Below, in pieces: positions 6,735 to 51,364 of a stretch of DNA of 64,000 nucleotides. The translations under genes and the position numbers were made by a program. Position 1 is the first letter of the stretch. Each line of letters opens with the position of its first letter. A model generated the notes under the pieces. That model was not told where the DNA came from, did not search any database, and saw nothing but the letters and a program-made list of their open reading frames with translations. The DNA comes from a phage, in assembly GCA_011835815.1 (NCBI GenBank), contig GCA_011835815.1_3615.1. One strand, written 5' to 3'.

Positions 6735-7154
6735 ATGAACATTAAATCTAATAATCCGGCATATAGCTTTGATAACGCTTTTTGTCACGGTCCGGCGGCG
6801 AAAGGTTTTGAAATTGATGGTAAACTAATTATTGTCAATGTTGACGGGGAAGAGGTTGCAGTATATCCGGTGGCAGACGTAAAAAGCCGTTTGCAATGCC
6901 GCATGGATGTTACCGCCTATCAGCTTGATCCGGTCCGCATAGTTGCCCTGGTCCTGGAAGAAGAAATTAAAGCCATGCACCATAGCAACAGGTTTATTGG
7001 TGACGCACAGGATAATATGAAGGTATGCCGCCATAAAGTTAATGAAGTGCTTAAAGAATATGGCTTTAAAGATCTGATGATCAAACGTGAGGAAAAATTC
7101 CGCTACCGTAACGACCTGGCAAATCGAATCTATGAAATATACGAATCATTATAA
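6735..7154 (+). CDS. hypothetical early protein
   Basis: 139-aa ORF with AGAGG SD; promoter upstream, terminator downstream; last + strand gene before the gene desert. Confidence 0.55.
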   Translation: MNIKSNNPAYSFDNAFCHGPAAKGFEIDGKLIIVNVDGEEVAVYPVADVKSRLQCRMDVTAYQLDPVRIVALVLEEEIKAMHHSNRFIGDAQDNMKVCRHKVNEVLKEYGFKDLMIKREEKFRYRNDLANRIYEIYESL

Positions 7155-7172
7155 TTTCTTAACTAAACTATC

Positions 7173-7202
7173 AGGGGCTTTAAAAGGCCCCTTTCTTTTT
7201 GT
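7173..7202 (+). terminator. rho-independent terminator
   Basis: AGGGGCTTT-AA-AAGGCCCCT hairpin then T-run. Confidence 0.65.
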
Positions 7203-7810
7203 CTGTATTTCTCCTACCACAAACGGCCCAGCCTGGCAAGTGGAATAATTGACTAGCCATCAATCCCACACACTGTACAAACATACATGTAAAATAACTA
7301 TTGCATAATTTTTCATTGTGTGGTAGCAGGTCCATTTTTACCCGTTTTCTCTCTCAAAATTGCACGTAATGCCGCTATTGCACAAAATTTAACCTGATGC
7401 ACATCTTCAATATCTTGTCAACAACTAAAAATCTTTATAAGTCATACACTTACACACTCACAAAAGCGTGTTCTACGTGAAAAATCGAGTATAACTATAG
7501 CCGCCAGATCTCAGAATTTACGTACGCTCACCATTCTATAGTCTGCTAAGTATTTATTCCAACCATGGAATAACGGAATAGTCAATACCTGCATAAAATA
7601 ATTATTCGTGTAAACTGCATAACATAAATCAGCTTATGTGTCAACATTCTTGGTAAACAGTCCGAAATTGTAACGGTAAGTTATAATAAACAGAGAAATC
7701 TTTAGTCGTCTAATGTTTACTGTACATAACTATACTGACTGGAATCATTAGATGACTAAGAGAAAGATAAGAAATAATTAACAATACAATTATTTTATCT
7801 GTAACAATAA

Positions 7811-7984
7811 GGCAACTATGCAAACGAATGGCATGGCGCGACGGAGTCGCGACATAATATAAAAGCAGTAACCATCACCCCCGTGATAGTTTGTCTGCAA
7901 TCTATTAATCAGATCATAGTTGCCTTGTATTCAGTTAATCATGACATAATAAGCAAGGCAACTATAGATCTGCTAATAGTTGCC
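7811..7984. repeat. four copies of GGCAACTAT in alternating orientation, including a perfect 12-bp inverted repeat
   Basis: Copies near 7811(+), 7916(-), 7957(+), 7976(-); ATAGTTGCCTTG...CAAGGCAACTAT arms; also a 19-bp direct repeat TGCAAACGAATG(G/T)CATGGC at about 7819 and 8047. Confidence 0.6.
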
Positions 7985-8075
7985 CTGCTTTTATATTATG
8001 TCATATATTATTAACTTGTTAATTGTTAACTTGCTAATTGTTTTCATGCAAACGAATGTCATGGCTTATCCTATC

Positions 8076-8147
8076 TGTGTAAACAGTTAAGGTGTAAACT
8101 ATCCAGGCGTAAACAGTCTATGCGGGAACAATCTATACGTGAACAGT
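8076..8147. repeat. three copies of GT(A/G)AACAGT at roughly 31-bp spacing
   Basis: GTAAACAGT near 8076 and 8108, GTGAACAGT near 8139; a related GTAAACTA between. Confidence 0.45.
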
Positions 8148-8759
8148 GAAACATGAAATAATAACAGTCGTTATTGTGTCGAAAGTGTATAAGGTGTCAG
8201 ACAAGTTTTTCTCCTCTTTGTCAAGTGCTGCATGAAAAATTTACAATCTGGTATGGTAGCATTTTTGCGGCCCGGTTTACATTCAGTTGTGTATGTATAA
8301 CCCTTGTTGTGTGGGCGTTTAGACGTCTGGACGGTCAGAAGTCCGCAGGTTAATATCTAATCTATTGGCTGCTAACTATATCCCACACAAATAGTAAGAA
8401 ATATAATTGTTATGTGCGTAAACGGTAACTCATGTTATCAATCCCTGTATGTATCGCCAGTGGTGCGCATAATAGGTATTATGTTAAATTGCCAGTAATG
8501 ATAACTATTCTCACAATGATAGGTATTCTCATTCACTCCCACAAGATAGGTTGCAAATGTTGTGCCACTGTGTGAACGGCCTCACCTATTAATTTGCCTC
8601 ACTGCCTCGATATTTGAGAATTGTTATAAGAATGAGAAGTATTCCCATTTCGTCCGCCTGGCAGCACTCCAGTCGCTACCGGCTCCTGACAGGGAGGCAC
8701 TCCTGTTGGTCAGGTCAAAATCGGGGTAGAACTGGGCCTGTTCAGATATTTCTGGCTGA

Positions 8760-9947
8760 CTCTTCAGGTCTGTGTGGGAAAAGCCAACCTCTCCGGCGGC
8801 GGGGAGGGGGTCAATTAAAAAATTTACGGGGTATATGAAGCGCTCTTCAGGTAAGGCATGTACTATGGGATGAGACCCTCTTCAGGCAATGATATTTGTG
8901 GGTGTGATATTTGCTGGAAAGCCAGATATGACGGGACTCCCGGCGGGGCAGGGGTAGTACAGACAGGGAAAATATGGGGATGTAGTTGGGTGAATTGATC
9001 GGGCAGGTAGAGTATGGAATATGTTACAAGTATGTTAAATATGGAGGGTGAATATCTGCAGGATTTGTGTGTAAAATCAAAGACTTAAGTAGTGTTGTGG
9101 TATTTTCTATAAATAATTCAAGTTTAATAGGTAATATTTGTCTCTATCCACTTTGTGTGGTAAACAAATTCAAATGAGATTGGTTTACAAGTGTATACAT
9201 AATATACAAATTAAAGATACAAGAAACCCCCCTCCCCCTTCGGCTACCATTCACCTTTTCCTCTGACTGGTACTTAAACACTTATTCAGACTCTTCAGGT
9301 TATCACCCATATACCATATGGCAGTGACTGGTGTCCTCCGGCCCCTCTTTCGTCACCCGTCCGCTTCGCCATGCTAATGCCATAGCTAATGGTTCGGTTG
9401 TTCACCCTGTTCACTCAGGTGTATCTCTATACCCCTTCAAACCGAAGAGAACAGAAAACCCGAATTACTCGGTAAAAGAAAAGAGAAGAACTTAATTTTA
9501 TCAGGATAGGCAAGAATGTCAAGGCATGACTGCTCACTAAACAAGCAAACAGTCATGTGTGGGAGGTAAGTGATTGTGGTGGTAGGAAATTTAGTTGAAA
9601 GATGTGTTATAGGTGCTTCCAGCACTTTAGCCTGGCAGCTAATTGTGTGTCAGTCCAGCGGTTCATCCTCTACTTCACTGAAATCAATGTTCATGGTCTC
9701 TTCCCAACCATCGATCTCAGCACAAGAGTGGAGTTCTTTAGGGTTTACTCCCAAAGCCTCAGCAACAGAGTCTATATTTAACACCCCTGGCAGGTATGAT
9801 TCATCGAATTCAAGGTAAATCAGGCCACGAGTGTTGTCAGCTCCACCAAATATCTCTATCTTCATAAAATCTCCTCTGGGAATGAAAGTGTGAACAGGGT
9901 TTTATACGTTCTAATGCACAGGAATTATACACGTTTGCCTCTTCAGG
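8760..9947. repeat. dispersed 9-mer CTCTTCAGG (5 copies)
   Basis: Exact copies near 8760, 8843, 8877, 9291 and 9939, all same orientation, all in non-coding DNA. Confidence 0.5.
9650..9865 (-). CDS. small highly acidic protein
   Basis: 71 aa, rich in D/E; most promoter-distal gene of the - strand block. Confidence 0.5.
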   Translation of the reverse strand: MKIEIFGGADNTRGLIYLEFDESYLPGVLNIDSVAEALGVNPKELHSCAEIDGWEETMNIDFSEVEDEPLD

Positions 9948-9986
9948 CCATGCTTTAGCATGAGGAACCTGTGTGGGCTCGGTGCT

Positions 9987-10199
9987 TCATAGTCTACCAC
10001 CTCTGAACTCTTCGTGCTCAGGCATAATAGAGAACCAGATATCTACGATGTCCTCCCACGTCAGGTCATCAGCCTCAGGATCTGTCTGGGACGAAGATGA
10101 AGAGTCCTCAGAATCTAAGTTTTCCTCTTTAACTGGCTCATCCAAGGGACATATGGCCACTCCTTCGGATGTCTCTTCAGATGCATGTGTGTTGATCAT
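9987..10199 (-). CDS. small highly acidic, Ser-rich protein
   Basis: 70 aa, D/E/S-rich; stop of upstream small ORF overlaps its start. Confidence 0.5.
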   Translation of the reverse strand: MINTHASEETSEGVAICPLDEPVKEENLDSEDSSSSSQTDPEADDLTWEDIVDIWFSIMPEHEEFRGGRL

Positions 10200-10297
10200 G
10201 TTCCACCCGTGAGTATTCCGGCAACAGCCGCTATGGAAGTAATGATCATCAGGATCACCACTAAAACTTCAGACAATGTTCTCATTGTGTATTCCAT
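10196..10297 (-). CDS. small hydrophobic peptide (33 aa)
   Basis: Hand-translated MEYTMRTLSEVLVVILMIITSIAAVAGILTGGT; GGAGA SD; ATGA overlap with downstream gene. Confidence 0.35.
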   Translation of the reverse strand: MEYTMRTLSEVLVVILMIITSIAAVAGILTGGT

Positions 10298-10559
10298 ATT
10301 CTCCAAACTGTGTGTGGATACTATCACGGTAGCGGTAATGTGTCAACAGCAACGCCGCGAGGGTTTGGTTAAAATCCGAGCGTATGGTGATTTGGGTCAA
10401 AACGGACGTGCGTTCTCGCTACGCTCGAAAAAGAGAGTTGTTTGTAGGAAGCTCTTAAACGCTCTGTAAGGAGATTATCTGTCCAAGGTATGCAATCGTG
10501 CACCAGATAAAGAAAAGGACGCCACAGAGCGTCCTAGGTGTCTTAAATTTGATATTTTG

Positions 10560-10871
10560 CTATACCCATGATGGCTTATCAAGGTTGGAGTAGCTGAAAG
10601 GTGTCAAAAGGTGACTGTCAAAATCTCTCAAACTATCCAGATCTTTTTCCTCGTCCTGACACCATCTGTGCCTGCATTTATTGTTGTAGTGCATAGAATG
10701 CATGGCGTTCTGCAACTTAACAGGCACAAGTGATTCCGGAGTAGATAGTATTGTTGGGTATGCCAGAACCACCTCAAACAGTGGAAACACATCGAAACTA
10801 AAATCTACCTCTGCAGAGGTTGATGGCATGTAGGAGTATTTAGCCGTCTTTGTAGACATAATCCACCTCAC
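10560..10871 (-). CDS. hypothetical protein
   Basis: 103-aa ORF, translationally coupled to upstream gene. Confidence 0.5.
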   Translation of the reverse strand: MRWIMSTKTAKYSYMPSTSAEVDFSFDVFPLFEVVLAYPTILSTPESLVPVKLQNAMHSMHYNNKCRHRWCQDEEKDLDSLRDFDSHLLTPFSYSNLDKPSWV

Positions 10872-11194
10872 ACAGGTTTGATAATACCTTCACCGAATAA
10901 CTCTTCATATCTAATCTTATCCGGATCCCACTCCTGGATAATTTCGAAGACAATATCCAACCCTGGGATAATCACTTCTCCAGTGTCAAGTTTGGCAAGA
11001 ACAAAACCAGAAGGCTGAATGGTTTCCCAGTTGCGCCGATTGGAATAGAAGACCTCGAAAATATCGCCGACCTTTATCTGTTGATCAAGATGTTCAAGAT
11101 TCTCTTTCATATAGACGCAGCGGATTTTTCGTGCAGGCCATAGACCACCTGCATCACGTTCATTTAGCTCTTTTACAGTAATCGGTATACCCAT
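10868..11194 (-). CDS. hypothetical protein
   Basis: 108-aa ORF. Confidence 0.5.
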   Translation of the reverse strand: MGIPITVKELNERDAGGLWPARKIRCVYMKENLEHLDQQIKVGDIFEVFYSNRRNWETIQPSGFVLAKLDTGEVIIPGLDIVFEIIQEWDPDKIRYEELFGEGIIKPV

Positions 11195-11212
11195 CTCAAA
11201 TCTCCTTCATAG

Positions 11213-11244
11213 ATAGTAAAAAGAGGGGCCCAAGCCCCCCTCTT
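11213..11244 (-). terminator. rho-independent terminator (- strand)
   Basis: AAAGAGGGGCC-CAAG-CCCCCCTCTTT hairpin just downstream of the 11250-11555 gene. Confidence 0.55.
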
Positions 11245-11249
11245 TGTCA

Positions 11250-11555
11250 TTATTCTACAGAGCGTTTGAACAGAATGTCTGCCTCGGACATGTGCTCAAC
11301 CTCTTCTTCGATTTTAGCTCGACGTTTTTCAGCCTCATATCGAATATCGAACTCGGTAGCCACCAGAGATTTGATGAATTTAGGAGAATACAGATGATCC
11401 TGCTTCTCAACAAGAATGATATCCTTGATGGCATCTTTCAGATCTTTAATCTGAAGTTGGAGTTCCACCAGTTCTTCGATTGTTTTGCGAAGGCGATCAC
11501 GCTCTGCAGTGTCAGAAGGAAGAGAGGTGAACAGTTCAACTTTAGATTTAGCCAT
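11250..11555 (-). CDS. hypothetical coiled-coil protein
   Basis: 101 aa, charged heptad-like sequence. Confidence 0.5.
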   Translation of the reverse strand: MAKSKVELFTSLPSDTAERDRLRKTIEELVELQLQIKDLKDAIKDIILVEKQDHLYSPKFIKSLVATEFDIRYEAEKRRAKIEEEVEHMSEADILFKRSVE

Positions 11556-11583
11556 AGTAAGAGTCTCCTTATGTTGTTTTAAA

Positions 11584-11835
11584 TTAACGTTCTACAAAAA
11601 TACCGTTCAGTTCAATAACCAGGAATTTCTGGTCTTCACTATCGTCTCGTGCCAGCACCTCACAGACGTATCGGTCATCCCCATCATCATCGCAGTCAAA
11701 TACAAGACTGAGGACTTTATCATGATAAACCTTCGCCACTACCGCCTCGTAAATATTGCCGATTGTGAATCCAAGATAATCTCCGATGCATTTGACAACA
11801 ACATGGTCGCCAGCATTCAAGTCAATCTTCGTCAT
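11584..11835 (-). CDS. hypothetical protein
   Basis: Start moved to in-frame ATG at 11835 with AAGGAG SD (track start 11901); acidic DDDGDD stretch. Confidence 0.5.
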   Translation of the reverse strand: MTKIDLNAGDHVVVKCIGDYLGFTIGNIYEAVVAKVYHDKVLSLVFDCDDDGDDRYVCEVLARDDSEDQKFLVIELNGIFVER

Positions 11836-11990
11836 TACTGCGCTCCTTGGGTAATAATACTGTATGTAAAACTTTAACCAGAGATGTGAATAACGCCCCA
11901 AAACACACCGATAGCGCTAAAACAGACAAGGCCATCATTAAAGCTTCAGTAAAATCTGTCATTCCTCACCTCTTGTTAGTCACTATACTA

Positions 11991-12254
11991 TCATTTATCC
12001 TTACCGTCAAGAACTTTTTTAAATCTTTCAGGGATATCTCCCGTTCTTAGATAGTTCATGACCTCACAAGGTTCCCACTTGAATTTCTTACAAAGCAGGG
12101 CGGCTGATATTGTCTCATTGCGAAAAGAAAGGATATTAATATCCCATTCTGAGAACCCCAACTTCCGAAGGGTAGCTACAGAAATCCTCACCGCAACCCA
12201 GCAGCAAAAACATGCAACAAACGCCACTGCTATAACCCACATCAGGATGTTCAT
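11991..12254 (-). CDS. small membrane-anchored protein
   Basis: 87 aa with N-terminal hydrophobic helix. Confidence 0.45.
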   Translation of the reverse strand: MNILMWVIAVAFVACFCCWVAVRISVATLRKLGFSEWDINILSFRNETISAALLCKKFKWEPCEVMNYLRTGDIPERFKKVLDGKDK

Positions 12255-12343
12255 ACAAGCACCTCACTGAAATACAAGACACAGTGTTAAGGTTACTGAC
12301 CAGCAAATAATTAACAGTGCCGTTGCAACCTTGGCAAGATTTA

Positions 12344-12631
12344 TCATAGTGCCTCTAAGATTTCATATCCTTCGGGTCGGAATACAAGCCACTCCGTGGC
12401 TCCGTTTGGTCGATACGCTTTATACAGAACAACCTGATCTCGGCACATGCACATAGCTACATAGTTTTCATCCACACCTGCAGCCTGCATTGCAGCTTCT
12501 TCTCCGGCAACTGCTTTGCTTACAACCTCCTTGGTAGGCAGGTGTGCGATCAGCTCGTCACCATCATTAATTCCAAAATGGCTGAGCTCTCCATTGGTAT
12601 CTTTAATCTTAATCTTAACCAGATCTTTCAT
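12344..12631 (-). CDS. hypothetical protein (paralog array)
   Basis: 95-aa ORF; stop/start overlap with neighbour. Confidence 0.5.
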   Translation of the reverse strand: MKDLVKIKIKDTNGELSHFGINDGDELIAHLPTKEVVSKAVAGEEAAMQAAGVDENYVAMCMCRDQVVLYKAYRPNGATEWLVFRPEGYEILEAL

Positions 12632-12960
12632 TAGTCTTCCTCCAGGTTCAAAGGCCCTAAGATTTCATATGCCAGATTAGAAGTTACCAGAGGGTCTTCT
12701 GCATCTTTAGTATTATACCACCCGTGAATAACCAGAGTCCCACTCTGTTTCATATCTAACTGGAACTGTTCTGCAGTTTCCTCATCCATCTCTAAGATCT
12801 CCATAAGGTACTTGATGTTAGGAAGGTATGCAGCTGTTACAGTTCCCTCTACCAGACCTTCGGGCCAACCTACATCCGGATGACAAGTAGGAACCAGGTT
12901 GGTCAGCTTAATGGTGTACGCTTTTTCTGCACGAGCCTTCAGTAACGGGTCAATCTTCAT
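12631..12960 (-). CDS. hypothetical protein (paralog array)
   Basis: 109-aa acidic ORF, coupled. Confidence 0.5.
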   Translation of the reverse strand: MKIDPLLKARAEKAYTIKLTNLVPTCHPDVGWPEGLVEGTVTAAYLPNIKYLMEILEMDEETAEQFQLDMKQSGTLVIHGWYNTKDAEDPLVTSNLAYEILGPLNLEED

Positions 12961-13310
12961 TATTCGTCCTCCTCTTCGGTGCCTGCTTCCAGTAATAAGT
13001 TAAGAATATCTTCTGCACAAGGCTCATAGAACTCTTGGCCTTCATTATCGATGATTTTGTAGTCATCTCCACGAATAATCAGAGGATCACTCTCAAAATT
13101 ATCGAGACCTTTAACAACGACAACACGATCGATTGCCATCATTGTAAGAACTTTATCGACATCTTCCTCTGCTACACCATACTGCAGCAGAATGTCTTTG
13201 GTAGGAGGAACAGCATCCACCACAACGCCGTTACCAAAACCTTCTGGAAGTTTAGCTAAAATATCTTCCGGAACCACATTCACATCAAAACCGGTAATTT
13301 CTACTTTCAT
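12960..13310 (-). CDS. hypothetical protein (paralog array, VVVVKGLD motif)
   Basis: 116 aa; starts MKVEITG like other array members; acidic C-terminus. Confidence 0.5.
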   Translation of the reverse strand: MKVEITGFDVNVVPEDILAKLPEGFGNGVVVDAVPPTKDILLQYGVAEEDVDKVLTMMAIDRVVVVKGLDNFESDPLIIRGDDYKIIDNEGQEFYEPCAEDILNLLLEAGTEEEDE

Positions 13311-13571
13311 TTACAGCACCTCTTCGTCAACTACTTCATAAAAATGGCCTGGGATTGCAATAGCGTTCTCACCTTCACCTACAAACACAGTTCCGTCAAG
13401 AATCAACATCATAAGAATTTCTGTAATATCCTCTTCCGGAACGTTGCCAAAACCTTTAATCAGCTCGTAGGTTGGAATATTTACCTCTAAGATGTCACCA
13501 TCTTTAGAACGGAAATCAACACCGTCCTGAATCTCTGCCGTTTCAAGGTTTTTCAATTTAATCTTCATCAA
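13311..13571 (-). CDS. hypothetical protein (paralog array)
   Basis: 86 aa; MKIKL start as in 14735-15004. Confidence 0.5.
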   Translation of the reverse strand: MMKIKLKNLETAEIQDGVDFRSKDGDILEVNIPTYELIKGFGNVPEEDITEILMMLILDGTVFVGEGENAIAIPGHFYEVVDEEVL

Positions 13572-13647
13572 TCGGTCCCCTGTCTTATTAAGATGAAGGT
13601 ATTATTTCACACAGGGTTGGCGTTGTCAACACCTGTGTGCAAGAAAA

Positions 13648-14043
13648 TTACTGAAACAGTGCGGATAAATTACCTTCTGGTGGGAACTTATCTGCCAAAA
13701 ACGGTGTTAGCACAGTAGCCTTCTGAAGATCTGGGGTCCACTCGTTGTTCAGAACATCCCAGTAGTACGCAATGTTGCTGTGTGGGTGCCGCATTACGAA
13801 CTTTTTCCCTTCGTAGTCATCTGAAACCTCTACAGAAGAAATAACAACAGAATCTTCAAGGGTTTCTTCATAGAAAGATCCACCTTCAAATTTCCAACGA
13901 GATGCAAGAGCCCCTGCCTTGAACGCTGCAGATAACGGACTGTCGGCAAGAACATACATTTCTTGCACTCTGTCGCTGCGATCTTTGCTTCTTACGTTGT
14001 ATACAGTATCTGAGCTATACTCAACACGGTATAGGCTTACCAT
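13648..14043 (-). CDS. hypothetical protein, paralog family B
   Basis: 131 aa; shares HPxS..YW.....WTP....T.L block with 15855-16253. Confidence 0.55.
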   Translation of the reverse strand: MVSLYRVEYSSDTVYNVRSKDRSDRVQEMYVLADSPLSAAFKAGALASRWKFEGGSFYEETLEDSVVISSVEVSDDYEGKKFVMRHPHSNIAYYWDVLNNEWTPDLQKATVLTPFLADKFPPEGNLSALFQ

Positions 14044-14402
14044 TACCGCACCTCCTCAATAACTTCCACATCTGAACCTACCACAAATGCAAAAGGACAG
14101 GTTTCATGAAAGATATCCGGATCGCCGCCAAGCTTGCTAACAATTTCTCCACCACTAATAAACACAAGCTCACCGATATTCATCAGATTGCTGAAATAGT
14201 ACCCATAATGATTAAAGAATGCAGCAGGGTCAGGTAGACTAGTAGCCTCAAGCACTACATCGGTTGAGGTTACTTTCTTATCATAACCTCTCGCCTTTTG
14301 AGATGCAAGATCTGCAGAATCCTCAGGCGACCGGAGATGCACAGGAATTGTTTCACCAATAAAGCGTACTTTCATATTATCACCCAACAACCATAGCTTC
14401 AA
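14043..14402 (-). CDS. hypothetical protein (paralog array)
   Basis: 119 aa; hydrophobic strand plus glycine motif LVFISGGEIV. Confidence 0.5.
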   Translation of the reverse strand: MKLWLLGDNMKVRFIGETIPVHLRSPEDSADLASQKARGYDKKVTSTDVVLEATSLPDPAAFFNHYGYYFSNLMNIGELVFISGGEIVSKLGGDPDIFHETCPFAFVVGSDVEVIEEVR

Positions 14403-14643
14403 AAGGAGTCATGAACGAATAAACGGCATCATCATCTGCTTCAGGGAATGCTCCCAAAGACTTCATATCTGAGCCCTTGACAAATACAAGGTTTTGATCA
14501 AAGGCTTCTTGGGGGTCAATCCGATACATATTTCGTAAAATATCGCTTACCTCCTCATCAAGAGGTGAGTATGCTGTGCACGTTTTTCCGATCAAGCTTT
14601 GAGAATCAGGGTATCCACCTGAAGTTTTAAAATAAACAATCAT
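14380..14643 (-). CDS. hypothetical protein, paralog family A
   Basis: 87 aa; NLVFVKGSDMKSLGA motif shared with 16266, 16510 and 20064 genes. Confidence 0.5.
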   Translation of the reverse strand: MIVYFKTSGGYPDSQSLIGKTCTAYSPLDEEVSDILRNMYRIDPQEAFDQNLVFVKGSDMKSLGAFPEADDDAVYSFMTPFEAMVVG

Positions 14644-14734
14644 ATAGTATCACCTCTGGTAAGAGATTGGGACTCCTTTCCCACAAATAATTACAAATCT
14701 TCCTTAGCGAGGAAGTATGCTAATCCAAGCAGGA

Positions 14735-15004
14735 TTATTCCTCTACAATCTCATACACATCAGGAGTTACAATCAACTCTTCTCCGTTACCCGGTGCAAC
14801 AAACACCACCAAACCTTCAGGTGTGTGCTTTTTAGCCATCTCGATAACATCTTCTCGCAGAGCTGGCTCCATCAGATCAAAACCTTCACCTAGGGCATCA
14901 CGAACCACCTTCATATAGTCCACTGGTTGTGCTTCAACAATCATGCCTTCAACCAGTCCACAATTTTTGTCTGCCAGCTCAGTTTGGAATAATTTAATTT
15001 TCAT
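14735..15004 (-). CDS. hypothetical protein (paralog array)
   Basis: 89 aa; MKIKLFQTELAD start similar to 13311-13571. Confidence 0.5.
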   Translation of the reverse strand: MKIKLFQTELADKNCGLVEGMIVEAQPVDYMKVVRDALGEGFDLMEPALREDVIEMAKKHTPEGLVVFVAPGNGEELIVTPDVYEIVEE

Positions 15005-15141
15005 TTAGAGGTCTCCTCAATTATTTGATATTAATAGCCGTAACCTAACACATTAACTACAACTGCGATTGCAAACATAATTTCAAAGCATGCAATCTCT
15101 ACATTTGGGACTAATTTCTTAATCACACCCATTGTAGCGCC

Positions 15142-15462
15142 TCATTCTCCAAAGTCAATCTTTACTTTGCCTTTCCCCTTACCTTTCTTTCCACCACATT
15201 TAGCCAGCTGACGTGCTGCAACATCTACCATACGGTCAGTTGCCTCGTAAGCATCACTGCCTTTAGCCTTGGCAATAACTTCTTTTCCAGAATTGTCAAA
15301 AATGAACGCCATAACTTCCTGGTGATCATTTTCAACTTTTACACTCACACGTGCATAGTTAACAGAGGGATGTAAACGCTCCAGCTTGGACATTTTGCGG
15401 GAAATAAAAGATACCATACCTTCTGTGATTTCTACATTGTTGCCAGTGATTTCAATTTGCAT
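15142..15462 (-). CDS. hpf: ribosome hibernation promoting factor (HPF/RaiA family) homolog
   Basis: 106 aa; MQIEITGNNVEITEGM...RVSVKVE...AKAKGSDAYEATDRMVDVAARQL lines up along its length with E. coli HPF as I recall it (MQLNITGNNVEITEALREF...YVVLKVEK...AEGQDMYAAIDGLIDKLARQL); extra Gly/Lys-rich C-terminal tail. Confidence 0.8.
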   Translation of the reverse strand: MQIEITGNNVEITEGMVSFISRKMSKLERLHPSVNYARVSVKVENDHQEVMAFIFDNSGKEVIAKAKGSDAYEATDRMVDVAARQLAKCGGKKGKGKGKVKIDFGE

Positions 15463-15546
15463 AACGTGTTCCTTTTAAGGAAGAGGGAATAACTATCTCT
15501 CTTTGAAAACAATGATACTAAATCTGAAGCGTTGTGTCAACAGTTT

Positions 15547-15837
15547 TTACAGCTTGTTGTCGATAGTTTTTAAAATATCCACAGCAAGATCTGCCATTTT
15601 TCGAACATACTCTGCAAACTCAACAGGATCCTTGATCAAAGAATTCACAGGGTCGTACCCTAGAGCGTTTAAAATGGCTGCAGCATCTACAACCTTCTCA
15701 TCATTTGCGAAGATCTCTCCGTCAAACTTGTAGGTCCATTTTGAGTCAACCTTAGCAGAGCAGGGTTTGTCCATGCTTGTTACACCATCGTCTTTAAACT
15801 CTCCTGCGTTATCAATATTTAGAATTAAATCCATCAT
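15547..15837 (-). CDS. hypothetical protein
   Basis: 96-aa acidic ORF. Confidence 0.5.
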   Translation of the reverse strand: MMDLILNIDNAGEFKDDGVTSMDKPCSAKVDSKWTYKFDGEIFANDEKVVDAAAILNALGYDPVNSLIKDPVEFAEYVRKMADLAVDILKTIDNKL

Positions 15838-15854
15838 GGTGACACCTCACTGTT

Positions 15855-16253
15855 TCAGTTTAGCTTTTCTTCAACAACCCCATAACTTGGGGCAGAGTCA
15901 AGAGCTTTCTGGTTTAAAAGTGGCGTAGCAGAATCTGCAAACGGTGTCCAAGTTTTTGTTCTGGCATTCCAGTAATGCTTCACTCTGGAATCTGGATGCA
16001 CTATAACAAAAACTTTTTCACTTGTCAACACATTAATTTCTTCTACACCCTTGCTGATAATTTCTCCGTCATAGCCCCCAGTCTGGTATCCTTCGTACCA
16101 GGTTCTTGCATAGGCATAGCCAGCCTGCCAGCATGCAGCCTCCTCCGAGGTGGAGACTACGTAGAAGTCTTTCTCAAATTCTGGAATACGCCCTTGCTTT
16201 ACGCTCCAAGCCCCGCGAATTTTCATTGTAACTTTAAACAGTTTATTTTTCAC
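15855..16253 (-). CDS. hypothetical protein, paralog family B
   Basis: 132 aa; paralog of 13648-14043. Confidence 0.55.
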   Translation of the reverse strand: MKNKLFKVTMKIRGAWSVKQGRIPEFEKDFYVVSTSEEAACWQAGYAYARTWYEGYQTGGYDGEIISKGVEEINVLTSEKVFVIVHPDSRVKHYWNARTKTWTPFADSATPLLNQKALDSAPSYGVVEEKLN

Positions 16254-16265
16254 AACGGTTACCCA

Positions 16266-16520
16266 TCACAGCTCTACAATATCTGCATCTGACCCTACCC
16301 CAAAGGCATAGTAGGACTCTTCCCCGAAATAATATTCAGGTGCACCAGCGGTGATCAGGTCTGATCCCAAGATAAACACCACGTTGTGGCCTACATAACT
16401 GTGATGTTGCCGCACAGGATCATCCCACGGCAACCCTTCAAAGTATACCGCAGGAACGACCTTTCCATTCAGGAAGGATTGTCCCAAGTAGACGTTAGAA
16501 TCAAGAATTTTAACCTTCAT
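16266..16520 (-). CDS. hypothetical protein, paralog family A
   Basis: 84 aa; MKVKILDS start and VVFILGSDLITAGA motif. Confidence 0.55.
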   Translation of the reverse strand: MKVKILDSNVYLGQSFLNGKVVPAVYFEGLPWDDPVRQHHSYVGHNVVFILGSDLITAGAPEYYFGEESYYAFGVGSDADIVEL

Positions 16521-16737
16521 GATCGTCCTCCACTACCTCTACATCCTCACCTAGGGCAAAGTTATAGGTCCACTGACTGTCAAAGCATTCCTGAGATGCA
16601 CCAGCGGCAATAAGATCTGCTCCTTTTATTTTTAAAAGGTCAGGGTAATCTTCGTTAGGGACAGCAGTAAACACTTTTCCTACTAAAGGCTCCTGACCAA
16701 TATAGAAGCTTGAATCTAAAACTTTAACTTTCATCAA
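16510..16737 (-). CDS. hypothetical protein, paralog family A
   Basis: 75 aa; MKVKVLDS start and KIKGADLIAAGA motif; tandem with 16266-16520. Confidence 0.55.
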   Translation of the reverse strand: MMKVKVLDSSFYIGQEPLVGKVFTAVPNEDYPDLLKIKGADLIAAGASQECFDSQWTYNFALGEDVEVVEDDHEG

Positions 16738-17021
16738 CGGTCTCCATCAGGTGGTTGTGGGACGTAAACACTGTTACGAATATCGTCAGCAGTGTAGTAA
16801 TAAGTGGTTCCAACCCTGTCTCGGGCTGCAATGTACTCTGCTATACCAATAAGTGCCATTGATTTGGTGGCGTATCTTCCCAACTCGTTAGCTCCCCAGT
16901 AGAATTTAGACCAGTAGGGAATAAGACCGAACAAATATACCTTTTGACGAACTTCCCAGTAAGTGCCTTTTCCGACAAGTTTAAACTCTACTTCACTACT
17001 GTTAATCTTTTTCATTATCAA
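16734..17021 (-). CDS. hypothetical protein
   Basis: 95-aa ORF, coupled. Confidence 0.5.
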   Translation of the reverse strand: MIMKKINSSEVEFKLVGKGTYWEVRQKVYLFGLIPYWSKFYWGANELGRYATKSMALIGIAEYIAARDRVGTTYYYTADDIRNSVYVPQPPDGDR

Positions 17022-17314
17022 TCTCCCTCTACCGTGGTCGGATTGTCAGTAAGAAATTGAGCATTGGCTGGAGGCACGCCTGACATTTTCCACACAACCA
17101 TAAGTTTGTAACCAGGCACTCTATTAAGTGCAGATCGAGTAGAGTTTGTGCACGTATACTTTCGCTTTCCAAACCCGTTCTCCATCATAATCCAGTACCC
17201 AGTATCTTTGTCACCAGGTATCGGTAGACCACCTTCATCAACCCACTGAATGGACCACGGCACGATGGCTACAGCTTTATATTTAAACTTTTTAAACCAC
17301 TCAAAAAGTTTCAT
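17018..17314 (-). CDS. hypothetical protein
   Basis: 98-aa ORF, coupled. Confidence 0.5.
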   Translation of the reverse strand: MKLFEWFKKFKYKAVAIVPWSIQWVDEGGLPIPGDKDTGYWIMMENGFGKRKYTCTNSTRSALNRVPGYKLMVVWKMSGVPPANAQFLTDNPTTVEGD

Positions 17315-17499
17315 AATTCAGCCTCGCTTGGCAACTCTTCTACCTTAACATGCCGAAAAGTGTTACCGTAATGGTTGATCCATGACATCAGCTCGCTTTC
17401 TTGCTCTTCCTCTGGGATGAACTCTCGAATGCTGACAAGTTTTAAGAAAACCCAATCACAATCTGCACCCATTCTACCAGACAGGCAATAGTGCTTCAT
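17311..17499 (-). CDS. hypothetical protein
   Basis: 62-aa ORF, coupled. Confidence 0.45.
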   Translation of the reverse strand: MKHYCLSGRMGADCDWVFLKLVSIREFIPEEEQESELMSWINHYGNTFRHVKVEELPSEAEL

Positions 17500-17517
17500 A
17501 AAACCCTCCTGCCTGGT

Positions 17518-17712
17518 TTAGAATATTGCTTCTTCCATTGCGCCTGAGAGCAACAAAGAGGTGATCTGGCTAACATTCATCTCAGACTCTACTTCCTCCC
17601 CTTTGAAAGGTTCGCGGCAGAATAGGACTGTTTCAGGACTTTTACTTCGAACAATATAATACAAATCATTCAATGTGTTGTAGTAATAAGTGTTAAAACG
17701 TAAGTTTTTCAT
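17518..17712 (-). CDS. hypothetical protein
   Basis: 64-aa ORF. Confidence 0.45.
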   Translation of the reverse strand: MKNLRFNTYYYNTLNDLYYIVRSKSPETVLFCREPFKGEEVESEMNVSQITSLLLSGAMEEAIF

Positions 17713-17996
17713 TTTCTAGTCCTCTTCTTAGATTTTTGGGGAGAAACGCTTTCTGCAATACGAGACAGACGTTCTTCTGAAGCCTTACCTACTCCAGGTT
17801 TTTTGAGTGGATTATCTTTATGACCACAATCCAACTGGATATTGGATACCTCTCCAACTTTGTAAGTCAATTCTAGCAAAAGGTTGTCGTCCTTGTCAAA
17901 TGTTTTTACGATAAATTTTTTATCGTTCTCCTGAACTTCATATCTGGTACCTGCAGTATACAGCATGGTGCCATCAGCATAGGATATCCAGATCAT
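17709..17996 (-). CDS. hypothetical protein
   Basis: 95-aa ORF with basic C-terminus. Confidence 0.5.
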   Translation of the reverse strand: MIWISYADGTMLYTAGTRYEVQENDKKFIVKTFDKDDNLLLELTYKVGEVSNIQLDCGHKDNPLKKPGVGKASEERLSRIAESVSPQKSKKRTRK

Positions 17997-18340
17997 TGAG
18001 CCTCCTTTTGCTGCAACAGCATTAACTCTTTGTTAGAGATCTTTACTGCTGTTTTTATTGTTCCATCTTCACGAAACCACGACCAGAACTCTACAGTGTC
18101 ACCACTATCAAGTAAAGCATGCCCATGGTAAAAATCTTTGTCCTTAGACAGTTTCTCATCTATATCTGCATCAACACATTCGTGATCCATAGCATTTTGC
18201 CTGAACGCATCGGTTATGCCAATGCACGCCTTGCTCTCAAGACTGGTATATCCGATATCTTTTAATTCAGTTTCCCAAGTCCAGTACCCTATAAAAGCTA
18301 AAACAGCTACCCACAGTAATAACGTTTTAATCTTTGGCAT
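17993..18340 (-). CDS. membrane-anchored or secreted protein
   Basis: 115 aa; N-terminal hydrophobic segment LLLWVAVLAFIGYWTW. Confidence 0.5.
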   Translation of the reverse strand: MPKIKTLLLWVAVLAFIGYWTWETELKDIGYTSLESKACIGITDAFRQNAMDHECVDADIDEKLSKDKDFYHGHALLDSGDTVEFWSWFREDGTIKTAVKISNKELMLLQQKEAQ

Positions 18341-18402
18341 TCTCTCTACCTCTTTCTTAGTTTATTTCACTATGGCACATCCTTTGTGCCATATCTCAAC
18401 TA

Positions 18403-18873
18403 CTACTTAAATAGTAGTTCAAAATAGTGCAAAATTAACAGAAGTTGAACTACACCTAGTGCAACGGCGAGTATGTTAATCTTAGAATCGAAAAACTTCT
18501 TAACTTTTACTCTAAAAGGTTCCTTAATGTCCTTTACGATCCTATCTATAGATGACCTCATATCTCTGATTACCATCCTGAACATTAAAGACGGATGCTC
18601 CCCCATCTCTGTAACGGAATCGAAAACATACTCTCTTCGGTCATAAGGGCCGCCAGCTCTGCGTATTAACCTCTCCACAGAGACCTCGAACGTCACACCT
18701 GTAACGTAATCATCTATAACAAGTCGTGACGGGTCTTTACCTTTACTATCAAGAGGTATCAAAGTTATCTTTCCAGATTTTGTTAAAATTTCCCCTTTTT
18801 CAAGCAAGGTGTACCAATGCTCTCTGCCAAGACTGTTGAGGCACGTTTTTACATATTTAACAAACATCGTCAC
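18403..18873 (-). CDS. hypothetical protein
   Basis: 156 aa; C-terminal hydrophobic segment. Confidence 0.5.
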   Translation of the reverse strand: MTMFVKYVKTCLNSLGREHWYTLLEKGEILTKSGKITLIPLDSKGKDPSRLVIDDYVTGVTFEVSVERLIRRAGGPYDRREYVFDSVTEMGEHPSLMFRMVIRDMRSSIDRIVKDIKEPFRVKVKKFFDSKINILAVALGVVQLLLILHYFELLFK

Positions 18874-19055
18874 CCCTCATCGCACGTCTGATATAACCAC
18901 TCTATAAAATCTTGATACCATTCGCCCTCTGAGCGCTCCGTAGGCCAATAATCTTCACCCTCTCGTGCATTAAAATCTGAGTATTCAACTTTCCACTCCT
19001 TTACCAGCTCGTGGAGAAGGTTTTCAGCCTGCTCTAAAGATTTATTTTTTACCAT
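18870..19055 (-). CDS. hypothetical small acidic protein
   Basis: Start moved to ATG at 19055 with AAGGAG SD (track uses TTG at 19073); Trp/Glu-rich. Confidence 0.45.
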   Translation of the reverse strand: MVKNKSLEQAENLLHELVKEWKVEYSDFNAREGEDYWPTERSEGEWYQDFIEWLYQTCDEG

Positions 19056-19274
19056 TGCTGTCTCCTTTTTCAAGATAGTTATACATCAGAACTGCACCAC
19101 CTAAGATGGCTACCAGTAACAATATCCCAGATAGCATCTCAATAAACATGGCTTGAAACACTGGAAGGTCTCCCTAAATTAACGCACCATTTTAAATACA
19201 TGCTCTTTTCCCATAAAGGTGCCTGGCTAAGATCTGCGTAGAACGCAATCTCTTTAAGAACAGTATAGATAGTT

Positions 19275-19502
19275 TTAGGTGCGGTCTCCATCCCTACTCT
19301 CCTTCCTGATATTCTTGTAGTAATCAACTAGGCACATTATTACGATGAAGATAACAACAGGCCAAAAAGGTGCAGCAGTGATGATGGTGATAAAATCATC
19401 AAACTTCACCCTTCGTCTGGACACGATGCATACACCTGTCAAGAATACCGCTGTTATAACGGACATTACCAGGTAACCTATTAGCACAACATTTATACTC
19501 AT
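19275..19502 (-). CDS. small membrane protein
   Basis: Start moved to in-frame ATG at 19502 with AAGGGGAGG SD; two hydrophobic helices. Confidence 0.45.
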   Translation of the reverse strand: MSINVVLIGYLVMSVITAVFLTGVCIVSRRRVKFDDFITIITAAPFWPVVIFIVIMCLVDYYKNIRKESRDGDRT

Positions 19503-19533
19503 TGGTCCTCCCCTTTGTAGGTTAAATTGTATA

Positions 19534-20067
19534 CTACAAATGGTCGCTGAGGGTGTCAAGAAAATTATCCCGTTCTTTCTCAGAGTTTTCATGTGTGTAG
19601 CTGAAAAACATATCGAGAATAACCTTATTGATATATTCCAGCTCCTCTGTGTTCAGATGCTTAGCAGGATCTACAATGACATCCCAAATATCATACAGAC
19701 CACACTCATGATACCCATAACGCCACTCAATTGTCAAGCTGAGCGGCAAATCTTTACCTTCACAAACAACCTTCCATCTACATATGTTGGTATCTGGTCG
19801 TACCTGTGCACGGTACACCTGCACAAAATCCAATTTGAATTTGAGGTACTCGTCATACAATTTAAGCACAAAGCTCTCGATTTGTGGAGACACTTTTGCA
19901 GCAAACTGTGCGTATTTGTACTTGCACTGGATGATCTTTCTGCGTTTTGCAGTTAAATTTTTTGCCGCCAGTTGTTCTTCAGTGTATCTCCACCTACGAT
20001 CAACAAACGCAACAGGGTCTTTGTCCCCATAGAGGTCTTCCCAGTTAATCAGAAGCATACCTGTCAC
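19534..20067 (-). CDS. hypothetical protein
   Basis: 177 aa; GTG start; Trp/Tyr-rich. Confidence 0.5.
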   Translation of the reverse strand: MTGMLLINWEDLYGDKDPVAFVDRRWRYTEEQLAAKNLTAKRRKIIQCKYKYAQFAAKVSPQIESFVLKLYDEYLKFKLDFVQVYRAQVRPDTNICRWKVVCEGKDLPLSLTIEWRYGYHECGLYDIWDVIVDPAKHLNTEELEYINKVILDMFFSYTHENSEKERDNFLDTLSDHL

Positions 20068-20297
20068 TCCTCCACAACTCCAAGGCCTTTACCGCCTCGC
20101 TCTGGCAGATTACTTAAAGATAGGTAATACATATAATCAGGAGAGATCCTGCCAGACTCTGCACCTGCAGCTAGTAAATCCTTCCCTTTAACCAGGACAA
20201 CATTCTCGTTTGCAGATAGCCGTTTTGCTTCCACAATTTTACCAACACAGTCAACCAAGGAAGGGTACCCTAAATCTGTAAGAAATTTAACTTTCAT
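20064..20297 (-). CDS. hypothetical protein, paralog family A
   Basis: 77 aa; MKVKFLTD start and VVLVKGKDLLAAGA motif. Confidence 0.55.
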   Translation of the reverse strand: MKVKFLTDLGYPSLVDCVGKIVEAKRLSANENVVLVKGKDLLAAGAESGRISPDYMYYLSLSNLPERGGKGLGVVEE

Positions 20298-20334
20298 GCT
20301 ACCTCCTACCTACCGTCCCTGGTAAGATAAATTA

Positions 20335-20733
20335 TTACTGAACAGAGCGCGGTGCTGGGAAGGATAACTCTTCTAAAGAGAAGATTTCATTTCCTACCAC
20401 CCAAGTTGCTGGGTCATCTGGATCAACAGGTTGGATAATCATTACTTCATCCGCCTCGCACACACGTTTCCCACCCATAGTAGCGTCAGCCACTAACATA
20501 CGCGGCTCTTCAGAAATGCACAGGTAGCCACCTCGGCCCACTGTTCCTTCCACGGGATCCTGCCCTTTGACCACAATGAATACCTTCTCTCCTGTGGAGA
20601 TATTACTTTTCACACTAACAGTTTGACCAACTTTAGATGTACCGATCTTGGTGGCTTCAAACATTAAATCCCGAATTACTGTTGCATAGTTGCCGGACAC
20701 TTTCTTACCTTCTTTAGTAATCTCAATCTTCAT
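20335..20733 (-). CDS. hypothetical protein (paralog array, KVFIVVKGQD motif)
   Basis: 132 aa; MKIEITK start. Confidence 0.5.
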   Translation of the reverse strand: MKIEITKEGKKVSGNYATVIRDLMFEATKIGTSKVGQTVSVKSNISTGEKVFIVVKGQDPVEGTVGRGGYLCISEEPRMLVADATMGGKRVCEADEVMIIQPVDPDDPATWVVGNEIFSLEELSFPAPRSVQ

Positions 20734-50424: not shown

Positions 50425-50499
50425 GCCCTGTTAGCTTAGTGGATAAAGCAGCGGCCTTCTAAGCCGTTGACACTGGTTCGAGTCCAGTACGGGGTGCCA
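50425..50499 (+). tRNA. tRNA-Arg (anticodon UCU)
   Basis: Hand-folded cloverleaf: acceptor GCCCTGT/ACGGGGT, anticodon loop CTTCTAA, T-loop GGTTCGAGTCC, encoded CCA. Confidence 0.75.
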
Positions 50500-50629
50500 A
50501 GTTCTTTTTAATGTAGCTTACTTTAGCAGAGTAAATCTTCGGCAAGTGGCGGTAACCACTTTACCGATACCTCATAGTTAGTGGTGAGAACACTAGCTAT
50601 TTTAAAAAGAATTTAAATATTAGTATTTA

Positions 50630-50717
50630 GGTGAGTTAATTCCGTAGGGGTAGCGGGGCAGACTGTAAATCTGTTATCATTGCGATTCGGGTGGTTCGAC
50701 TCCATCACTCACCACCA
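50630..50717 (+). tRNA. tRNA-Tyr (anticodon GUA), class II
   Basis: Acceptor GGTGAGT/ACTCACC, anticodon arm GCAGA-CTGTAAA-TCTGT, long variable arm, T-loop GGTTCGACTCC, CCA; D-arm register uncertain. Confidence 0.65.
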
Positions 50718-50821
50718 AATTTATATTTTTAAATGCATAAATCATACAGATAATGGCATTGATATTTATCGTCGTTTATACTAGTCACTAACTGCTCGAA
50801 AATCAGTGTCATTATCAGTAT

Positions 50822-50912
50822 AATTTATAAAGGAGGGTAGGGAGCAATGGTGCTCAAGCGGTCTTGAAAACCGCCCCGTTGAGGATGACTCGATGATGGT
50901 TCGATTCCATTA
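50822..50912 (+). tRNA. tRNA-Ser (anticodon UGA), class II
   Basis: Acceptor GGAGGGT/ACTCTCC, anticodon arm GCGGT-CTTGAAA-ACCGC, long variable arm, T-loop GGTTCGATTCC, CCA. Confidence 0.65.
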
Positions 50913-51020
50913 CTCTCCGCCACATTGTTGACCTTGTAATTAAGCGAAAGCCGGAAGCAGAACCGGATTATCAAATGTTACAGTCGTCATCGCCGACTAG
51001 CAACATGGTCAACATACTGA

Positions 51021-51119
51021 GCTAGGTAAGCCCTTTGGCAAGGGCGAGGATTTTTAATCCTGAAAATAGACGAGGTAGTCGTTGAATACATAGGTGGTTC
51101 GATTCCATCGCCTAGCACC
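51021..51119 (+). tRNA. atypical tRNA-like gene (about 97 nt), anticodon possibly UUU (Lys)
   Basis: Perfect acceptor GCTAGGT/GCCTAGC, D-arm GCCC-TTTGGCAA-GGGC, anticodon-like hairpin GAGGA-TTTTTAA-TCCTG, canonical T-arm; but about 30 nt inserted between anticodon stem and T-stem. Confidence 0.4.
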
Positions 51120-51124
51120 TTTTT

Positions 51125-51200
51125 GCTGATGTAGCACAATCGGTAGTGCAATTGATTTGTAATCAATAGGTTGTAGGTTCAAGTCCTGCCATCAGCACCA
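51125..51200 (+). tRNA. tRNA-Thr (anticodon UGU)
   Basis: Acceptor GCTGATG/CATCAGC, D-stem GCAC/GTGC, anticodon arm ATTGA-TTTGTAA-TCAAT, T-loop GGTTCAAGTCC, CCA. Confidence 0.75.
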
Positions 51201-51201
51201 A

Positions 51202-51276
51202 GGCCCTGTAGCTGGAAGGTTCAAGCAAGCGACTCATAATCGCCAGACGGTGGTTCAATTCCACCCAGGGCCACCA
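51202..51276 (+). tRNA. tRNA-Met or Ile2 (anticodon CAU)
   Basis: Acceptor GGCCCTG/CAGGGCC, anticodon loop CTCATAA, T-loop GGTTCAATTCC, CCA; not initiator-like. Confidence 0.7.
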
Positions 51277-51287
51277 AATAGTAAATA

Positions 51288-51364
51288 CTCCGCGTAGCTC
51301 AGCTTGGTAGAGCGCCTGATTTGGGATCAGGAGGTCGAGTGTTCGAATCACTCCGTGGAGACCA
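51288..51364 (+). tRNA. tRNA-Pro (anticodon UGG)
   Basis: Acceptor CTCCGCG/CGTGGAG, D-stem GCTC/GAGC, anticodon arm CCTGA-TTTGGGA-TCAGG, T-loop GTTCGAATC, CCA. Confidence 0.75.

Follow-up and report, generated by a model that had tools for sequence, protein, structure and literature searches.

Three families of small paralogous proteins, two with a predicted SH3-like barrel, in a genus-specific gene block of a Vequintavirus

The DNA analysed here (the window) is a stretch of 64,000 nucleotides from a Vequintavirus, an rV5-like E. coli myophage (GenBank assembly GCA_011835815.1, contig GCA_011835815.1_3615.1). Its positions 12344 to 20733 hold a block of small minus-strand genes, and between 12344 and 20297 twelve of the about 28 minus-strand genes encode paralogs that fall into three families, A (five genes), B (two) and C (five). 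The block (8.4 kb) shares 99.7% identity with Escherichia phage navn and matches 122 phage records, all of them rV5-like and of the genus Vequintavirus, with at least 80% of its length covered in 115 of the 122. Eighteen of the matching GenBank records (MG0656xx) are titled 'Campylobacter phage', with 98.9-99.6% identity among those listed, and most give Campylobacter jejuni as the host; this host label is probably wrong, or else the preparations were contaminated. Public annotation of the region reads 'hypothetical protein' nearly throughout, the exceptions being 15142-15462, named as a ribosome hibernation factor, and 18403-18873, named as a possible virion protein. The rV5 genome paper places the block within a long transcription unit, genes 82-163, together with genes of nucleotide metabolism and replication, and makes no mention of paralogs or duplications.

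An earlier reading of the sequence alone, hereafter the original prediction, had described a packed, translationally coupled minus-strand array containing at least three families and ten or more members, and both the gene positions and the count hold, with twelve members in three families. A Shine-Dalgarno sequence is present before every gene of the array, and the intergenic spacing ranges from -11 to +91 nt and includes the -1 and -4 overlaps that are typical of translational coupling. Families were defined by all-against-all BLASTP of 32 minus-strand genes, by profile searches of the 536 open reading frames (ORFs) of the window, and by comparison of hidden Markov models (HMMs) of ortholog groups with hhalign. 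When the alignments and HMM-HMM comparisons that had been proposed as a check were run, the similarities in families A and B exceeded what composition would give, with E values down to 1e-21 and 6e-10, respectively. The likeness between paralogs is seen at the protein level only. Because the sole surviving DNA repeat between copies is 30 nt long (16338 versus 16594), the duplications in the array are old.

Family A comprises the genes at 20064..20297 (77 aa, rV5 ORF127), 16510..16734 (74 aa, ORF140), 16266..16520 (84 aa, ORF141, which overlaps 16510 by 11 nt), 14380..14643 (87 aa, ORF147, with an insert between strands b2 and b3) and 14043..14375 (110 aa, ORF148), all on the minus strand. The true start of the last is an internal ATG (MKVRF), as in the public annotation and in the alignment to phrog_13661, which begins at residue 10. 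The closest pair is 16266 and 16510 (BLASTP E 1.7e-14; ortholog-profile hhalign 1.6e-21), followed by 16510 and 20064 (7.5e-6 and 5.9e-13, respectively), while hhalign links 14380 to 16510 at 4e-6 and 14043 to 16266 at 3.3e-5; in HMM searches 14043 scores at E 1e-4 to 7e-18. An enlarged family A profile recovers the five genes at E 7e-18 to 4e-30, every other ORF of the window scoring 0.5 or above. All five match the profile over their full length and carry the signature MKVK-L..-GY...GKV..A ... G.(D/E)L(I/L).AGA ... Y.F..G.(D/E).E(V/I)(V/I)E. Cluster phrog_5009 groups 16266, 16510 and 20064 (the last at 5e-35, and the most widely conserved A copy), and weakly matches 14380. The family of four that had been proposed from the letters (14380, 16266, 16510 and 20064) is thus real and larger than stated, its fifth member, 14043-14375, having been missed.

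The two genes assigned to family B in the original prediction, 15855..16253 (132 aa, ORF142) and 13648..14043 (131 aa, ORF149, overlapping 14043 by 1 nt), both on the minus strand, do form a family. They resemble each other at a BLASTP E of 6e-10 over 119 aa, share full-length likeness over about 131 aa that includes the HP.S...YW.....WTP block, and match phrog_7379 over its full length at 2e-66 and 4e-74.

Family C is real, though weaker, and connects five minus-strand genes: 14735..15004 (89 aa, ORF146), 13311..13568 (85 aa, ORF150), 12960..13310 (116 aa, ORF151, net charge -21), 12631..12960 (109 aa, ORF152) and 12344..12631 (95 aa, rV5 ORF153/154). They are joined by a chain of hhalign matches, 13311-14735 at 5e-5, 12960-13311 at 1.2e-4, 12344-14735 at 1.3e-3, 12344-12960 at 2e-3 and, as the weakest link to the family, 12631-12960 at 9e-3; the Bonferroni level for the 45 comparisons is about 1e-3, and links above it are weak taken singly. 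The pooled C profile recovers only the five C genes in the window, and a shared full-length layout can be followed through them (MK-IK..., G..v.A.PT, an EED helix, dG.VV, N, YEI). In the rV5 reference (NC_011041; L014 9426-9715) the ortholog of 12344-12631 is split into ORF153 and ORF154 by two single-base insertions, which is either a sequencing error or the mark of a pseudogene. A looser group of MK-starting genes had been suggested to comprise 12960, 13311, 14735 and 20335; its first three members belong to family C, which also takes in the unlisted 12344 and 12631, and it is only 20335 (20335..20733, minus strand, 132 aa) that finds no support as a paralog. This gene shares with the array just its MKIEI start and a KVFIVVKG patch, matching over the first 7 residues (best P 0.021) and a 12-residue patch (P 0.12), and was excluded.

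Profile searches found no additional family members elsewhere in the window, nor among 19 unassigned neighbour genes. The MK(I/V)-type N-terminal start that the original prediction had pointed out is indeed enriched in the array, MK[VI][KER][LIVFY] opening 8 of 26 array ORFs vs 1 of 93 elsewhere (Fisher P 1.5e-5). The sole ORF outside the array with an MKVK(L) start, 2634-2984 on the plus strand (MKVKLYYLNELNPLAQ), is matched by neither the A profile nor the C profile.

Scans of family representatives against Pfam, NCBIfam and PADLOC gave no match, in agreement with the earlier statement that none of the proteins has a recognisable domain, and searches of PDB sequences with the A and C profiles and one B sequence returned chance-level matches only. 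Our literature search on rV5 and Vequintavirus paralogs, early genes, transcriptomics and anti-defence also found no description of the families. The suggestion that they may be undescribed therefore holds in so far as no curated domain model exists for them, but not in so far as PHROGs clusters already cover them and their predicted fold is a common one. At E 1e-32 to 1e-76 the A proteins fall into phrog_5009, 13920 and 13661, the B proteins into phrog_7379, and the C proteins into phrog_12155, 12359 and 11868, the scan of family C covering 12960, 13311 and 14735. PHROGs thus already joins three of the A genes and both B genes. However, all of these clusters are listed as 'unknown function', A is split into three of them and C into at least three, and no fold, cassette or link between A and C is recorded there.

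The structure prediction that had been proposed as a further check was also run, and it places families A and C on one SH3-like small barrel. In the AlphaFold models the fold and strand order of the two families agree (16510, pLDDT 90; 13311, an SH3-like barrel with a two-helix insert, pLDDT 89). At the level of sequence the evidence for a relation between A and C is marginal: their profiles align with hhalign E values of 0.0025 and 0.0049 (probability 7-12%) over b1-b2(-b3); in 38 control comparisons against other genes of the array no value was better than 0.021. The products of the five A and five C genes are thus predicted by modelling to be acidic SH3-like barrels, each a single domain, 74-116 aa long; nine of the ten have a pI of 4.0-4.8 and a net charge of -6 to -21. 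The known fold nearest to them is the SH3-like small beta-barrel of SH3, KOW, PsaE and Tudor/Sm-like domains. No member, however, matched a canonical SH3 (SH3_1 and related), KOW or LSM model in Pfam at E up to 0.1, and a fold search of BFVD returned uncharacterised phage proteins only, the top match for 14380 being the CM1 ortholog.

Read in the order of transcription, with x for genes outside the families, the array is xAxxxxxxxxxxxxAABxxxCAABCCCC. Two A-A-B triplets are present, 16510-16266-15855 (cassette 1) and 14380-14043-13648 (cassette 2), and shuffling of the labels gives P of about 3e-4 for two such triplets and about 0.006 for the run of four C genes. Since the order repeats and the similarities across cassettes pair by position, 14380 being nearest to 16510 (4e-6) and 14043 nearest to 16266 (3.3e-5), an ancient duplication of a three-gene cassette is suggested, and the two cassettes probably arose by one segmental duplication. 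It counts against this history that 16266 and 16510 resemble each other more than either resembles its positional partner, which calls for the assumption of homogenisation at a later time or of unequal rates. The tandem pairs and the repeated A-A-B order nonetheless bear out the local duplication and divergence on which the original prediction rested.

That prediction had also called the array fast-evolving, which does not describe it within the genus. Compared with OX460980, the most divergent Vequintavirus genome, all genes are present and syntenic and the paralogs are 79-98% identical, the phrog_5009 trio being the most divergent at 79-84%; the median protein identity is 93% in the block and 97% in neighbouring genes. 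The dN/dS ratio is 0.03-0.22 in all twelve paralogs, and all copies are kept by purifying selection. With most of the block present in nearly every matching record, as given above, the term fits only as turnover between genera. A tblastn search with one A and one B member returned 118 records each, Vequintavirus throughout, and word-indexed homolog searches with A, B and C found nothing beyond Vequintavirus orthologs. At the syntenic loci of the sister genera Seunavirus (two phages), Mydovirus and Avunavirus, which were anchored on the ClpP-like protease, there is no member of A, B or C. Homologs were found there for 5 of 26 block ORFs, none of them a paralog, vs 17 of the 20 genes just upstream. 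The block is a genus-specific, non-structural accessory region.

One cassette has been lost in nature. EduardKellenberger (Bas59, MZ501061.1; L010), a phage of the BASEL collection, carries a 3.7-kb deletion corresponding to 15941-19661 of the window, by which 16510 and 16266 are lost together with the greater part of 15855 and about 11 more small genes. The deletion leaves the gene at 19534, a 'putative glycosidase', fused to the 15855 C-terminus, and at the junction the aligned flanks overlap by 15 nt. Bas59 is viable and was isolated on E. coli K-12, so that one A-A-B cassette is dispensable on this host.

Beyond the genus, family A was traced with its profile, which HMMER compared exhaustively with 1.84 billion representatives. 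This gave 34 proteins at E <1e-3, of which about 25 are distant relatives of 63-107 aa carrying the same signature; of the giant-protein matches, P0096 and P0114, the former was set aside as probably spurious, Pfam showing it to be a YDG/MBG repeat surface protein. Proteins 41-46% identical to 20064 are encoded by lambdoid prophages and by a distant Vequintavirus-like lineage, in which genes resembling 21006, 20335, 20064 and 18403 are syntenic. The lambdoid E. coli prophages have one copy (P0091, 41% identical to 20064) between the Q antiterminator and the holin. A 42.5-kb phage contig (L002) has two copies, one of them flanked by a Prim-Pol and an AAA_24 gene, a 52-kb phage contig (L016) has an adjacent pair, and a wastewater contig (L015) encodes a fused two-domain protein (P0113). 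Across these contexts there is no recurring neighbour gene, and no family B gene was found alongside family A. From its sequence relatives, family A is a mobile small phage gene that was duplicated or fused several times independently. The surroundings of two of these loci may be added: in the lambdoid prophages (L011-L013, about 7850-13600) P0091 is one of about 15-25 unannotated small genes in an unusually long Q-to-holin run, and L016 encodes TerC-, TelA- and vWA-TerF-like proteins at 6933-12053, resembling tellurite-resistance genes.

Two sigma-70-like promoters on the minus strand lie within the array. One, at 13601-13629, lies upstream of the four consecutive C genes and corresponds to the annotated rV5 promoter P150; the other, in mid-array at 15512-15540, corresponds to rV5 P144. 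The latter is the own sigma-70-like promoter (15540-15512) of 15142-15462 on the minus strand, a gene for a ribosome hibernation factor (HPF/RaiA homolog) that lies between the two A-A-B cassettes and matches PF02482 at E 4e-15 (56.7 bits vs a cutoff of 23.7). It alone passes the gathering score of PF02482; none of the paralogs matches this model, nor does 20335 despite a similar N-terminus, and a reading of 20335 as an HPF-like protein was rejected. The sister-genus loci examined yielded no homolog of the HPF gene. Two further genes inside the block, both on the minus strand, are known from rV5 by position: 18403-18873 corresponds to gp133, a protein seen in virions and with homologs in the sister genera, and 19275-19502 to gp129, a two-transmembrane protein proposed as the holin in the rV5 paper, though it is far from the endolysin.

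Our results suggest that an ancestral gene for a small SH3-like barrel was duplicated repeatedly inside a genus-specific block of Vequintavirus that bears sigma-70-type promoters. The proteins would be stoichiometric protein-binding modules rather than enzymes or nucleic-acid binders, and each paralog would, by way of divergent loops and inserts, have its own target among the proteins of the host (or phage), to be bound and modulated in the course of infection. The physiological role served in this way could be host takeover, host-range tuning or counter-defence. Neighbouring copies would probably act jointly as hetero-oligomers, as is suggested by the independent tandem pairs and by the fused two-domain version in other phages. 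That these are duplicated, acidic, non-essential SH3-like protein-binding modulators of the infected cell, in a genus-specific accessory block, is the best explanation we can offer, and we hold it with about even confidence.

Plastic accessory regions are familiar in large virulent phages, as in the hyperplastic regions of T4, the host-takeover module of SPO1 and T5's pre-early genes. Like these, the array consists of packed, translationally coupled small ORFan genes with host-type promoters, is lineage-specific and can be dispensed with, at least in part, under laboratory conditions. It differs from them in that 12 of its about 28 genes fall into three families, two with one fold, and in the high stability that the block shows across the genus. 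The accessory ('moron') runs between Q and the lysis genes of lambdoid phages are comparable in that they contain P0091, but there the single A copy lies in a late transcription unit of a temperate phage, without B or C. The array is thus a familiar kind of paralog expansion, and the family itself is uncharacterised.

The alternative that survives best is a dedicated anti-defence repertoire, in which each paralog inhibits, or acts as a decoy or sponge for, another bacterial immune system. In its multi-copy expansion the array is like known clusters of counter-defence genes. Small, acidic, non-essential proteins in a lineage-specific block with host-type promoters would suit such a role, as would the classic accessory positions that family A occupies in other phages, such as the interval from Q to the lysis genes in lambdoid prophages. 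However, none of the known inhibitors that could be tested gave a match and no link to defence was found in the literature. The low dN/dS and the near absence of presence/absence variation in about 120 genomes are also unlike typical anti-defence islands. According to the BASEL study, moreover, Vequintavirinae do not seem to be effectively protected against restriction-modification. Because of this statement, together with the strong conservation and the scarcity of presence/absence variation, the anti-defence role that the original prediction had named beside host takeover becomes a minority possibility, one that we regard as distinctly less probable than modulation of assorted target proteins. 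A bolder form of the modulator reading, in which A and C are one previously undescribed superfamily of SH3-like adaptors and the A-A-B products form a hetero-oligomer that disables a host pathway or immune system, strikes us as rather doubtful; were the second cassette to have an alternative specificity, a phage without one cassette would be expected to stay viable.

Translation regulators that bind RNA or the ribosome, as KOW-, Sm- or ribosomal-protein-like barrels do, and that cooperate with the mid-array hibernation factor, are a further reading. The strongly negative charge of the proteins (pI near 4) disfavours this reading, since it speaks strongly against direct RNA binding. The failure to match the Pfam KOW and LSM models also argues against it, as does the position of family A relatives in other phages, which are not beside HPF genes; we think it improbable. 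SH3-like barrels are known in phage structural proteins, and a role as minor virion, decoration or assembly-chaperone proteins might be considered for this reason and because the neighbouring gp133 is found in virions. However, none of the twelve paralogs (ORF127, 140-142 and 146-154) is among the 19 proteins identified by mass spectrometry of rV5 virions, an analysis of limited sensitivity. The block also belongs to the nucleotide-metabolism and replication transcription unit, outside the structural module, and a viable phage has lost one cassette, which together leave a virion role very unlikely. That the similarities reflect composition or chance, or that the ORFs are not genes, finds some room in the weaker C links (E 1e-3 to 9e-3) and the failure of 20335, but is already refuted for families A and B and barely credible overall given the E values, the independent PHROGs grouping, dN/dS far below 1 in every member, confident fold predictions, the enriched start motif and the non-random gene order.

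Phages like rV5 are among the most often isolated E. coli phages and are candidates for therapy and biocontrol, and small ORFans make up about one third of their genes. Of these, twelve collapse here to three families, ten of the twelve with one predicted fold, and the recurring cassette and the deletion in Bas59, a natural mutant with a close relative in Bas58, are testable units. Because family A is also present in lambdoid prophages and unrelated gut phages, any function found would reach beyond Vequintavirus. We regard the result as useful annotation more than as a surprise.

Two features of the window away from the array may be added. Where the plus-strand genes give way to the minus-strand unit, about 2.3 kb (approximately 7155-9436) are without an ORF of at least 70 aa; Rfam matches at E up to 0.1 are absent from this interval, which has three short tandem repeats only (15-18 bp) and probably corresponds to a box that the rV5 genome paper marks as 'non-coding'. 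In the tRNA cluster at 50425-51364, which has five ordinary tRNAs (Arg, Ser, Thr, Met and Pro), ARAGORN also predicts, at 51021-51119 on the plus strand, a tRNA-like gene of 99 nt whose anticodon has four bases (atcc).

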